Source: a virus
Lineage: Duplodnaviria; Caudoviricetes
Reading direction: 5' to 3' (one strand)
Length of the DNA: 64,000 bases
IMG/VR virus record: IMGVR_UViG_3300033068_001704
Location: 32,001 to 96,000 of that record
Below the pieces are notes generated by a model. It was not told where the DNA came from, ran no database searches, and saw only the letters and a program-made list of their open reading frames with translations. The first letter of the stretch is position 1, and the number at the start of each line of letters is the position of its first letter. Positions 39,826-42,223 of this stretch are shown piece after piece. The position numbers and the translations under genes are program-made.

Positions 39826-39885
39826 GGGGATTCGAACCTTCACCCGCTAGACTTCCTCGGCTCAGGTACTATCCTGTCTCCCACC

Positions 39886-39933
39886 ATGAATCTCCTGGCA
39901 CCCATGACCTTCTTGTAGATGCGCCGGCCTTAG
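39886..39933 (+). promoter_or_regulatory. Leader mini-ORF MNLLAPMTFL*MRRP* (two in-frame TAG)
   Basis: Follows TACTAT box (39867); TAG at 39916 and 39931; same frame as ORF 40006-40506. Confidence 0.45.
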
Positions 39934-40005
39934 CTCTCGTCCGCGTGGTCCCCCATCGCGGGTCGTTCCCTTTTGGACCGAACCCGAATCGATGAGGAGA
40001 GAACC

Positions 40006-40506
40006 ATGCTCAAGAACGAGATCAAGAACGAGCTGAAGAACCGCGTCGCCGAGAAGACCTTGAAGCGGAAGGTCCGTCTGCTCTACAAGAGCAAGACGCA
40101 TCCGATCGTGGAGGCTTGGGAAGCCGCTGGGCGTCCCTTCATGGAAGAGCCCGAGGCAGTGGCCTACCGCTCTCGGTACCGGGTCATCCTCCAGTTCTGG
40201 TGGGAGGGTGCCGACCTGAAGAAGGAGATCCGGTCCCACCAGCTCGCGCTCGGGTACCTGCGCGGACGTCGGTACTGGGAGTGCGAGCGTTCCAGGGCCG
40301 AGGACAACTTCCCGAACACGGATGAGATCGTCCGGCTGACGGGGGCGACGGAGGCGGAGATCTCCGACTGGCTCACCGAGAAGCCCTCGGAGGAAGAGGC
40401 CGCGGCGTACCAGGTACACCTCGATGCCGCGAAGGCGAAGGCTCGTGCGGCGAAGGCTTCGTACGGTCTCGCGAAGCGCGCAGCGCAGTGTGGGAGAGCA
40501 GCATGA
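40006..40506 (+). CDS. Hypothetical protein with R.H.LA.GYLRG..Y...E motif
   Basis: GAGGAG RBS; EIRSHQLALGYLRGRRYWECE. Confidence 0.7.
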   Translation: MLKNEIKNELKNRVAEKTLKRKVRLLYKSKTHPIVEAWEAAGRPFMEEPEAVAYRSRYRVILQFWWEGADLKKEIRSHQLALGYLRGRRYWECERSRAEDNFPNTDEIVRLTGATEAEISDWLTEKPSEEEAAAYQVHLDAAKAKARAAKASYGLAKRAAQCGRAA

Positions 40507-41543
40507 ACCCGAAGATTCACACCCGCACCAGCCCCAGCGGCAAGTACACGCTCACGGTGACGTCGATCGAGACGAAGCCTGGGTGCTGGAACTACACGAC
40601 TGGGGTCGTGACCCGCGGCGAAGAGACGATCGTCGAGGTCAAGCGCAACTACGCCTCTTTCCCGTTCCTCTTCGTCGAGGGTCATGCGAACGGGCACGAC
40701 TACCTCGTCTGTGGTGAGAACTACCAGGGCCAGACCGTCATCGAGCTGGACACGGGGCGTCGGAGCGACTTCCTTCCGGAGGCTGCAACGCAGGGTCATG
40801 GGTTCTGTTGGGTGGCCTACACCTACGAGGCAGACGCCCAGGTCCTCGTGGTAGATGGGTGCATCTGGGCCTGCCCCTACGAGTATCGGTTGTACGACTT
40901 CTCCGATCCGATGGGCCAGGGGTGGCCGGAGATCGTGCTCGATGGGGACTGCATCGAGTCGGACGACAAGCCCCCGACGTTCAACCCCGATGGGACGATC
41001 ACCTGCTACGAGATGCGGGAGCAGGAAGACGGCGAGGAGAACGAGGACGGTGAGCTGCCGAAGACTGTGGTGGCAACCAAGACGTTCCGCCGCAACGAGC
41101 TGAAGCTCGAACTCGTCTCTGCCTGGGTCGATGAGGCAGAGCGAAAGCGTCGCGCCGAGTCGGAGGCAGCTCGGAAGCGATGGGAGGACGCATGGGAGGT
41201 CTACAAGCAGACCGACCCCCTCTACCTCCACGTCCTCGCACGCGTCACGTCCGAGAAGTTCGACGACGCGTCGTACTTCTCGACGGGGCAGTGTTACGAG
41301 GGGTGGTGCCCGGAGTTCAAGGGGGTGGACTCCAGGATCTGCCGCCGACTCGTGTCCAGTCGCATGACCCCGGAAGGGTCCAAGGTCACGCTCGACCTGG
41401 AGTGGGGCCGAAACATCGCACCGGTGAAGCTGGTGGTCTACCGGGATGGGAAGGCCGCAGGGACGCTGTGGTTCGAGCGTTCGATCGCAGGGATCGACGA
41501 GGCCTTCAACCATTCGATCTCCCTCCTGGGGGCGAGATCATGA
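40503..41543 (+). CDS. Hypothetical protein
   Basis: ATGA overlap; SPSGKY.L, YQGQTVIEL, GFCW, DGCIWACPYE. Confidence 0.7.
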   Translation: MNPKIHTRTSPSGKYTLTVTSIETKPGCWNYTTGVVTRGEETIVEVKRNYASFPFLFVEGHANGHDYLVCGENYQGQTVIELDTGRRSDFLPEAATQGHGFCWVAYTYEADAQVLVVDGCIWACPYEYRLYDFSDPMGQGWPEIVLDGDCIESDDKPPTFNPDGTITCYEMREQEDGEENEDGELPKTVVATKTFRRNELKLELVSAWVDEAERKRRAESEAARKRWEDAWEVYKQTDPLYLHVLARVTSEKFDDASYFSTGQCYEGWCPEFKGVDSRICRRLVSSRMTPEGSKVTLDLEWGRNIAPVKLVVYRDGKAAGTLWFERSIAGIDEAFNHSISLLGARS

Positions 41544-41806
41544 GGGACTGCCGAGCCAGGCTGTTCGCCCGAGAGGGTGGGCATGTCCTCTATCTCTTCC
41601 CCGAGAATCAGAAGGGGTACGTCAGTCTCAATTCGGACCTCTCTTCGGATGGTCCGGAAGACTATCCGGCTGTGTGCGGGATGATCTCCGATCGCGGGAA
41701 CGGGGACTGCTCTGCGCGAGAGCTGAAGACGCCGGAGGACTTCAACGAGTTCTTCGCGGAGGCTCTCGCGTTCCTCGCGCGGAATTCGCTGAAGGGGGAG
41801 CCGTGA
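41540..41806 (+). CDS. Hypothetical protein
   Basis: ATGA overlap upstream and GTGA overlap downstream. Confidence 0.55.
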   Translation: MRDCRARLFAREGGHVLYLFPENQKGYVSLNSDLSSDGPEDYPAVCGMISDRGNGDCSARELKTPEDFNEFFAEALAFLARNSLKGEP

Positions 41807-42117
41807 AGCTCTACCTGGTCACGCGTCAGGATCTCCCCCCTGGCGCTCGGGCCGCTCAGCTCTGTCACGCGCTCCGCCAGTTCGGAGAAGATCACCCGGA
41901 GGTCGATCGGGACTGGTTCCGGCGCAGCAACACCCTGGTGTTGTTGGAAGGGAAGGACGAGCATGCTCTCTCCGATCTCGCGGACAAGGCGAGGTTGAGC
42001 GGGGTGCCCGTCGCGGTCTTCCGAGAACCCGACCTCGCCGATGCTCTGACTGCAATCGCCGTGGGGCCGAAGGGGAAGCGGCTCGTCCGTGGTCTCCCTC
42101 TGGCCCTGAGGGCGTAA
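41803..42117 (+). CDS. Second Pth2-superfamily protein (PTRHD1-like short form)
   Basis: KLYLVTRQDLPPGARAAQLCHA, W...SNTLVLL, FREPDL...LTAIAVGP...LPL. Confidence 0.85.
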   Translation: MKLYLVTRQDLPPGARAAQLCHALRQFGEDHPEVDRDWFRRSNTLVLLEGKDEHALSDLADKARLSGVPVAVFREPDLADALTAIAVGPKGKRLVRGLPLALRA

Positions 42118-42148
42118 CATACAGGGAGGCCTTCTGGGGCCTTCCTCT

Positions 42149-42223
42149 GATCCTATAGCTCCAATGGCAGAGCGGCTGGGCGCCTAACCCGGTGCGTTGC
42201 GGGTTCGAATCCTGCTGGGATCA
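42149..42223 (+). tRNA. Atypical tRNA (6-bp anticodon stem, loop CGCCTAA; nominal anticodon CCT, identity uncertain), no encoded CCA
   Basis: Acceptor GATCCTA/TGGGATC, D arm GCTC-CAATGGCA-GAGC, T arm GCGGG-TTCGAAT-CCTGC. Confidence 0.8.

Follow-up and report, generated by a model that had tools for sequence, protein, structure and literature searches.

Leader, masking helix and tRNA at the gene A locus

The stretch of DNA analysed here (the window; 64,000 nt) comprises bases 32001–96000 of the 222-kb IMG/VR virus record (63% G+C) IMGVR_UViG_3300033068_001704, a jumbo phage. Between positions 39847 and 42224 it contains a compact operon, in which a very short leader open reading frame (ORF) ending on TAG precedes a gene of a family without a name, here called gene A, and which is closed by a tRNA with a CUA triplet in an abnormal anticodon loop. 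Comparison with relatives of this locus suggests that leader, gene A and tRNA belong together, and we discuss them as a candidate translational switch. The features of the operon are as follows.

39847–39875, + strand: promoter-like site, with a -35-like CTAGAC (39847–39852) and a -10-like TACTAT (39867–39872) or TATCCT (39870–39875)
39886–39919, + strand: leader upstream ORF (uORF) MNLLAPMTFL of 10 codons, with an internal ATG at 39904, followed by TAG (39916–39918) and an A, giving the four-base word TAGA
39919–39933, + strand: frame-0 continuation ATG CGC CGG CCT TAG (MRRP-stop), which shuts frame 0 just 12 nt past the first TAG
39920–39955, + strand: +1-frame extension CAGLSSRPRGPP, with R-G-P-P (RAPP-like) encoded at 39944–39955
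39942–39963, + strand: predicted anti-Shine-Dalgarno strand (fold and RNAduplex), made up of the GTGGTCCCCC box and its flanks and overlapping the RGPP codons
39982–40009, + strand: predicted masked strand, with the Shine-Dalgarno (SD) sequence GAGGAG (39994–39999) and the gene A start codon (40006–40008)
40006–40506, + strand: gene A, 166 amino acids (aa), all-helical, family without a name, with a basic C-terminal helix ending RAA
40503–41543, + strand: 346-aa beta-rich protein, start overlapping the gene A stop (ATGA)
41540–41806, + strand: 88-aa protein, overlap-coupled (ATGA)
41803–42117, + strand: short divergent Pth2-like protein, 104 aa, with a GTG start overlapping the preceding stop (GTGA); PF01981, phrog_1866
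42149–42224, + strand: tRNA with an expanded or otherwise abnormal anticodon arm containing CUA; Rfam tRNA match, syntenic with suppressor tRNAs of relatives

A preliminary description of this sequence had noted the -10-like box TACTAT at 39867, a leader reading MNLLAPMTFL-TAG-MRRP-TAG from the ATG at 39886 in the frame of the gene A ATG at 40006, and a tRNA with CTA in an odd loop. All three were confirmed, with the -35-like CTAGAC lying upstream of the -10-like box and the second TAG located at 39931–39933. The pattern CTAGAC-N17-TANNNT occurs a single time in the window, and relatives have CCCCTAGAC or CTTGAC followed by TAnnnT at the equivalent place; a strict sigma-70 scan of the promoter-like site gave no match. 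An in-frame readthrough fusion of leader and gene A was considered as a conserved feature and rejected, as the frame varies between loci and the nearest relative (locus L009) has intervening TGA and TAA codons.

The tRNA gene scored 37.7 bits against the Rfam tRNA model (RF00005, gathering threshold 29), and its acceptor, D and T arms are intact. The anticodon arm can be read in two ways, either with a stem of 6 bp and the loop CGCCUAA, which has G33 and leaves an additional base at position 26, or with a stem of 5 bp that closes the 9-nt loop GCGCCUAAC, and it departs from the canonical elongator pattern of a 5-bp stem, 7-nt loop, U33 and A14, with C at position 14. Only one further RNA gene was found within the window, for a transfer-messenger RNA (tmRNA) at 42947–43329. 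The odd tRNA is also the sole tRNA gene of the contig apart from an array of 37 canonical tRNA genes at 9.2–20 kb (contig G000:C1:9273-20013), outside the window, which includes a normal tRNA-Arg(CCU) and has no suppressor. By sequence the nearest tRNA is the 8-nt-loop tRNA of L009 (75% identity), which exceeds the identity to any of the phage's own 37 tRNAs, and relatives carry CUA, UUA or UCA tRNAs at the syntenic position, a synteny which argues for a nonsense-suppressor identity of the window tRNA.

In minimum free energy (MFE) folds of 27 leaders, a C-rich box located 3′ of the leader stop pairs with the region of the gene A SD sequence and AUG, forming a single long helix around a small hairpin. 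The box is conserved as CGCGGTCCYCC or CGTGGNCCTCC, its CCNCC core lies 8–18 nt from the leader stop in most loci, and in the window the pairing of 39942–39963 with 39982–40009 was calculated at -25.9 kcal/mol (MFE fold, RNAduplex). Cognate box/SD duplexes had a mean of -19.65 kcal/mol versus -13.43 kcal/mol for all non-cognate combinations (26 loci, permutation p = 5e-5), and the box flanks co-vary, with GCGGTC/GACCGC in L002, L003, L006 and L013 and GTGGA/TCCAC in L001. At 39945–39979 the anti-SD box could also fold into a local hairpin (GTGGTCCCCCATCGCGGGTCGT) followed by TCCCTTTTGG, which is listed as terminator-like, and there may be a transcriptional component of the switch at this position.

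Leader stop codons and tRNA anticodons among relatives

Relatives of gene A were collected by searching 1.8 billion cluster representatives with a profile, which gave 97 representatives, and their DNA was taken from Logan, JGI, IMG/VR, metagenome collections and GenBank phages. A short ORF was present upstream of every gene A, and lies 60–140 nt upstream in 30 non-redundant loci, in which a stop-reading tRNA adjoins the operon. Counting only loci where the leader stop and the tRNA were both readable (n = 30), the stop codon of the leader corresponded to the anticodon of the adjacent tRNA in 30/30, comprising 20 TAG/CUA, two TAA/UUA and eight TGA/UCA pairs. The two TAA/UUA loci have unrelated tRNA bodies (class I and class II) and are found in different parts of the gene A tree. 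An SD-like sequence precedes 16 of the 30 uORFs and the remaining ones start near a promoter-like site, and on these signals the uORFs look translated.

The preliminary description had interpreted the locus as a module sensing UAG termination or readthrough, and the complete match of leader stop and anticodon backs this view; the conserved neighbourhood and leader ORF it anticipated among homologs were both found, and 30 loci have the leader, the masking helix, gene A and a tRNA that fits the stop codon together, which takes the combination beyond chance. In the high-G+C clade to which the window belongs, gene A is followed by 0–2 small genes, the short Pth2-like gene and, within a few bases, the tRNA. 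The clade tRNAs have a CUA anticodon in 10 loci or an 8-nt loop with UCUA in four (L006 has both kinds), UUA in two, UCA in two, and an 8-nt loop with UUCA in three. The pairing of the gene A motif protein with Pth2-like genes in other phages, which the preliminary description had also mentioned, proved correct, as 18 distinct loci other than the window have a short gene of this type downstream of gene A. The Pth2-like gene is absent from more distant gene A homologs, which still directly adjoin a stop-reading tRNA, as in L016, L017, L020, L021, L040 and L046 and in three cultured phages. The suggestion that protein, hydrolase and tRNA belong together is supported by this comparison, with leader, gene A and tRNA as the core of the module and the Pth2-like gene confined to one clade.

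Three cultured phages are among the 30 loci: Stenotrophomonas phage DLP5, Agrobacterium phage OLIVR1 and Synechococcus phage BUCT-ZZ01. In OLIVR1 (L048, MT234338), the tRNA at 2318–2394 is annotated as tRNA-Val and has a window-like 8-nt anticodon loop (GCCCUAAC), and the gene A homolog gp84 (2495–2962) is annotated as 'putative structural protein'.

Phage-wide recoding of TAG was considered and rejected. Coding-like long ORFs in the window are predominantly on the + strand (117, versus 54 on the other), TAG terminates 27 of the 117 long + strand ORFs, and all 11 cases of coding-like sequence past a TAG consisted of an intergenic spacer and a new start, with no in-frame TAG supported inside genes. 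Since TAG is an ordinary stop codon in this genome, the leader stands out as a specific target and does not reflect a general recoding, and since TGA is the commonest stop codon in these genomes, the TAG leaders are not accounted for by base composition.

The RGPP motif and a candidate switch responding to stop-codon suppression

In nearly all loci the C-rich box encodes R-G/A-P-P, or the looser R/K-x-P-P or K-P-P-stop, in a frame that is open past the leader stop, and by chance an open R[GA]PP is expected in 0.2% of random 22-codon stretches of the window's genome. RGPP is among the RAPP-like arrest motifs (Fujiwara 2024, PMC10987492), and the mechanism of RAPP-type stalling has been described (Morici 2024, PMC10951233). 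In the window the strand encoding the arrest site is at the same time the SD-masking strand, as is looked for in a RAPP-type leader. Frame 0 after the leader TAG reads MRRP-TAG without an arrest motif, and it is the +1 frame after TAGA that reads CAGLSSRPRGPPS. In L009 the +1 frame reads CVGLEPRARGPPQ, which keeps R-A-R-G-P-P, and frame 0 closes at a TGA after four codons; R(P/A)RGPP is thus kept in +1 in both loci, with the Gly and first Pro codons differing synonymously. Ordinary initiation cannot enter the RGPP frame of the window, because a TGA at 39905 precedes the motif and no ATG follows this TGA.

Across loci the motif is found in frame 0 in 19 (the form of the module in DLP5, OLIVR1 and BUCT-ZZ01) and in +1 in 12. 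Placement in +1 was seen in 9/13 loci with an expanded (8- or 9-nt) anticodon loop versus 2/14 loci with a canonical loop (Fisher p = 0.006), and an A directly follows the stop codon in 12/12 of the +1 loci versus 7/19 of the frame-0 loci (p = 0.0004). The loop insertion was confirmed independently by Infernal in L009, L024 and L018, with L003 and L044 being ambiguous. Closure of frame 0, as a test of +1 decoding, was weakly significant (p = 0.04) and was replaced by the frame of the RGPP motif. The expanded-loop tRNAs, that of the window included, may be natural four-base (or +1 out-of-frame) decoders that act where the leader ends, on UAGA or UGAA, and would shift the ribosome to the RGPP frame. 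We put this forward as a hypothesis that is somewhat less likely than not to be correct, because four expanded-loop loci use frame 0 and the window loop has a C rather than a U before CUA.

The leader, the stop/anticodon match, the masking helix with its co-variation and the RGPP motif with its frame are all visible by sequence and comparison, and we think it more likely than not that together they constitute a translational switch reporting whether the phage's own stop-reading tRNA works. In this switch, a transcript starting at approximately 39880 would carry the 10-codon leader ending on UAG-A. Termination by a release factor (RF) at the leader stop would remove the ribosome early, and the SD sequence and AUG of gene A would stay in the helix with 39942–39963. 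If the tRNA at 42149–42224 is charged and decodes the stop codon, as we infer, the ribosome would proceed for eight codons to the Arg-Gly-Pro-Pro encoded on the same C-rich strand; in the window phage decoding would also have to shift it to +1, for which a four-base reading of UAGA is the simplest way. A ribosome held at RGPP would have Pro codons 39950–39955 in its P and A sites and so sit over the anti-SD strand 39942–39963, keeping it single-stranded and freeing the ribosome-binding site of gene A. Gene A and the overlap-coupled genes, including that of the short Pth2-like protein, would then be made in proportion to suppressor activity. Our guess is that the products handle the cost of suppression, by rescue of peptidyl-tRNA or ribosomes, or that they tune the tRNA.

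Several observations weigh against such a switch, and the main doubts concern the aberrant tRNA of the window, stalling at RGPP and the sign of regulation. Of all the tRNAs in the set, that of the window deviates most from the canonical form (C14, C or G in place of U33, a 9-nt loop and 37.7 bits), CUA is off-centre in its loop, ARAGORN calls it Arg(CCU) and Infernal also centres CCU, and the base 5′ of CUA is a C that does not pair with the A of UAGA, so that this tRNA may be inactive or may not be a reader of UAG. Among the relatives, the tRNAs of L016, L017, L020, L021, L040 and L046 were detected only at relaxed ARAGORN thresholds, and in expanded loops the 'anticodon' was assigned by locating the triplet in the loop. 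The nascent chain at RGPP is short (~20 aa), and RAPP-like motifs in ordinary proteins are mostly without stalling (Fujiwara 2024, PMC10987492); because most such motifs do not stall, stalling at RGPP is a prediction here. The sign of regulation is uncertain, because a terminating ribosome at the leader stop might on its own open part of the helix.

The full concordance of stop codon and anticodon has a naive multinomial p of ~7e-10, but is much less significant than this count because of the poor resolution of the gene A tree: eight stop-type changes are needed on the best tree, well-supported branches force about two, and there are one independent contrast or pair on well-supported branches and five to six on the best tree. 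From at least four matched switches, we estimate p at roughly 0.01. RNAalifold returned no consensus helix for 13 leaders aligned with MAFFT, as this alignment does not bring the two strands into register, and per-sequence folds with cognate versus non-cognate duplexes were used as the test of the helix instead.

Part of the same evidence could be read to mean that the family design is real and the copy in the window is decaying or rewired, with a pseudo-tRNA or plain tRNA-Arg(CCU), a relic leader, and gene A being otherwise controlled or silent. The centring of CCU by both ARAGORN and Infernal would fit this, as would C14, the lack of U33, the second-lowest tRNA score in the genome, the mismatch of the CCUA word to UAGA, and the presence of two extra genes between gene A and the Pth2-like gene. 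However, the leader, TAGA, the RGPP in +1, the helix of -25.9 kcal/mol and the frames of gene A and the Pth2-like gene are all intact, the phage already has a canonical tRNA-Arg(CCU), L009 keeps the +1 layout with an 8-nt loop, and the cultured phage OLIVR1 has a loop (GCCCUAAC) similar to that of the window, which together make decay of the window copy unlikely. Somewhat less probable still is a leader that senses termination efficiency without decoding by a tRNA, in which, when RF1 is scarce, a ribosome pausing on the leader UAG or on the Pro-UAG of MRRP would unwind the beginning of the helix and so switch on the operon, with the tRNA matching since both concern the same stop codon. Stop codons do serve as release-factor sensors in prfB and tnaC, the helix starts right past the leader stop in several loci, and the spacing of stop codon and CCNCC core is short in most. 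The preliminary description had also attributed a role to the poorly terminating Pro-stop ending, but L009 has MRRT-TGA in place of MRRP-TAG, and neither the Pro nor the TAG is conserved. Nor would a release-factor sensor account for the open R-G/A-P-P frame kept past the stop in nearly all loci, or for the motif frame tracking the size of the anticodon loop, and TAA leaders, whose stop is read by both release factors, pair with UUA tRNAs.

Finally, the anticodon could pair with a 'stop codon' in the leader RNA without a ribosome and so remodel the SD-masking helix, as in a T-box-like riboswitch. The match of codon and anticodon is what would be expected of a specifier, a purine often follows the codon, and T-boxes that mask the SD sequence exist in Actinobacteria. 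The region 39700–43400 gave no match to the Rfam T-box or any other family at E<=1, which a very divergent form could escape, a Stem I platform would not fit into the available space, the triplet is the last codon of an ORF that starts with ATG and is often preceded by an SD sequence, and the RGPP peptide is conserved through synonymous changes, so that we regard a T-box-like element as very improbable. The tRNA-decoding switch accommodates the conserved frame and the loop-size association, and is the reading that we prefer.

Gene products, neighbouring genes and known systems

Gene A carries a IRSHQLALGYLRGRRYW motif (family motif IR...LA.(A/G)(F/Y).RGR.YW..ER) and has no family match in Pfam, PHROGs or NCBIfam. 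Its AlphaFold2 model (predicted local distance difference test score, pLDDT, 92.5) consists of a long helical hairpin, a small helical domain and the basic C-terminal helix. Foldseek found no match in the PDB at E<=0.001, VIA-align gave generic helical hairpins only (Z <= ~8), a search of the ESM Atlas had no usable result, and no relatives were found in bacterial genomes using one narrow peptide pattern only. In nearly all of the clade, and in several distant homologs, the gene A protein ends on ..RAA or ..AA, and the TGA behind it overlaps the start of the following gene (40495–40506 in the window); this C-terminal AA, like the end of an ssrA tag, could mark the protein for ClpXP. A complex prediction of gene A with the short Pth2-like protein scored 0.01, which is no evidence either way.

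The overlap-coupled run of the preliminary description, leading into a short Pth2-superfamily hydrolase, is present with its overlaps (ATGA, ATGA and GTGA), and the short Pth2-like protein matches Pfam PTH2 (PF01981) with E = 1.6e-11 and 44.9 bits versus a cut-off of 23. The protein is under both NCBIfam equivalog cut-offs (33.8 versus 126 bits and 32.3 versus 82 bits). It retains a fold-level match to archaeal Pth2, and alignment with M. jannaschii Pth2 (2zv3) and with the canonical Pth2 of the window showed that the canonical GKGK loop behind the first strand is replaced by PP-GAR and D-S/A-G-x-T by EPD-L. These positions presumably include the catalytic residues of Pth2, and as the GKGK loop and D-x-G-x-T are replaced in 16/16 short homologs, a role in peptidyl-tRNA hydrolysis is putative.

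Of the two proteins encoded between them, the 346-aa protein gave a model with pLDDT 79.5 and generic beta-propeller-like matches only. Its homologs immediately follow the suppressor tRNA in three loci (L013, L006 and L014) and gene A in a fourth (L031), and by position it is a conserved neighbour of the module. The 88-aa protein had no family match, and no homolog among the compared loci. The following features flank the operon.

37840–38367, + strand: canonical Pth2, 175 aa, upstream neighbour; PF01981 with E = 3e-30, TIGR00283 with 92.1 bits, passing the cut-off of 82
38791–39825: NUDIX gene, with the domain at residues 60–163 of a 344-aa ORF
42947–43329, + strand: phage tmRNA with tag ANDNSYAQAIAA, Rfam 143.5 bits; a neighbour whose operon membership is not shown

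The ~180 C-terminal residues of the NUDIX ORF had no family match, and its TAG stop shares the frame of the leader and gene A. Just past this stop, the minus strand at 39826–39845 reads GGTTCGAATCCCCC, which is T-arm-like, and no tRNA was called there; in several distant loci a tRNA gene lies directly upstream of the gene A leader. The tmRNA starts 720 nt past the odd tRNA and is followed by a strong terminator-like hairpin (43335–43368), and BUCT-ZZ01 likewise has a tmRNA, ~500 nt past gene A. The tmRNA of the window is flanked by two proteins sharing a ~24-aa LIRLAHSKPELRAHLIPLLK-like segment, which forms the N-terminus of a 196-aa protein (42289–42360) and the C-terminus of a protein ending at 43931 (43839–43910), and proteins with such a segment recur near the module in L013, L006, L009 and L003. 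At the DNA level, the phage has no kin among GenBank phages beyond one 72-nt Pth2 stretch.

We found no published description of the leader/gene A/tRNA module in the literature. If the switch is real, the 'orphan' suppressor tRNAs that many standard-code phages carry gain a conserved natural target, a known type of leader switch gains a new input in the activity of a stop-reading tRNA, and phage control and tolerance of stop-codon suppression, which are also central to code switching in recoded phages, become testable, with DLP5, OLIVR1 and BUCT-ZZ01 as culturable hosts of the module. Gene A would moreover be a widespread phage family now tied to translation. The +1 variant would represent a built-in sensor of quadruplet decoding, with conserved natural quadruplet tRNAs and a dedicated target in many phages, and would to our knowledge be the first case of natural conserved quadruplet decoding; it would also supply orthogonal parts (tRNA, codon word and sensor) for genetic-code expansion.

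The closest resemblance is to the RAPP-type arrest peptides (ApdA, ApdP, SecM RAGP and the RQH family with RGPP; PMC10951233, PMC10987492), in which an upstream ORF likewise encodes R-A/G-P-P and a held ribosome is expected to keep an SD-masking helix open, turning on the next gene. In the module, however, the motif sits behind a stop codon and would be reachable only by suppressor decoding, here with a +1 shift; the leader has only 10 codons, the chain is ~20 aa and its stalling is predicted, signals for secretion or insertion are lacking, and the downstream genes gave no Sec or YidC match. Attenuation of the ermC/cat type also combines a leader ORF with alternative pairing that hides a downstream ribosome-binding site, but the input of the module would be a stop-reading phage tRNA instead of a ribosome-bound antibiotic. 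Similarly, the +1 frameshift at the in-frame UGA of prfB (RF2) uses a stop codon as a sensor of decoding and termination and a +1 shift to continue, whereas the module lacks the CUU-U slippery site before the stop (UUC UUG UAG A), would sense a tRNA and not a release factor, and has a product that differs from the sensed factor.

Engineered and mutant four-base tRNAs (UAGA/UCUA pairs, SufB2; PMC8481270, PMC9094753) share the extra loop base and the reading of UAGA or UGAA before the +1 frame, whereas those of the module would be natural, conserved and tied to a regulatory target, and the window loop has two extra bases, with C before CUA. PTH2 proteins of jumbo phages have been read as ribosome rescue factors, without the module context (Iyer et al. 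2021, PMC7824862); the archaeo-eukaryotic-type peptidyl-tRNA hydrolase fold in large phages is common to both, but the 104-aa form makes up a shorter subfamily of its own, with a fixed place between gene A and a suppressor tRNA, in a phage that also has the canonical Pth2. Finally, 'orphan' suppressor tRNAs were reported in the genome papers of XacN1 and Atu_ph07, where target genes were not identified (PMC5852040, PMC6102473), and recoded phages also encode CUA and UCA tRNAs (bioRxiv 10.1101/2021.08.26.457843; theta-ribozyme paper, PMC10879173). Unlike the latter, the phage described here and its relatives use the standard code, and the one evident target of the module tRNA is the leader.

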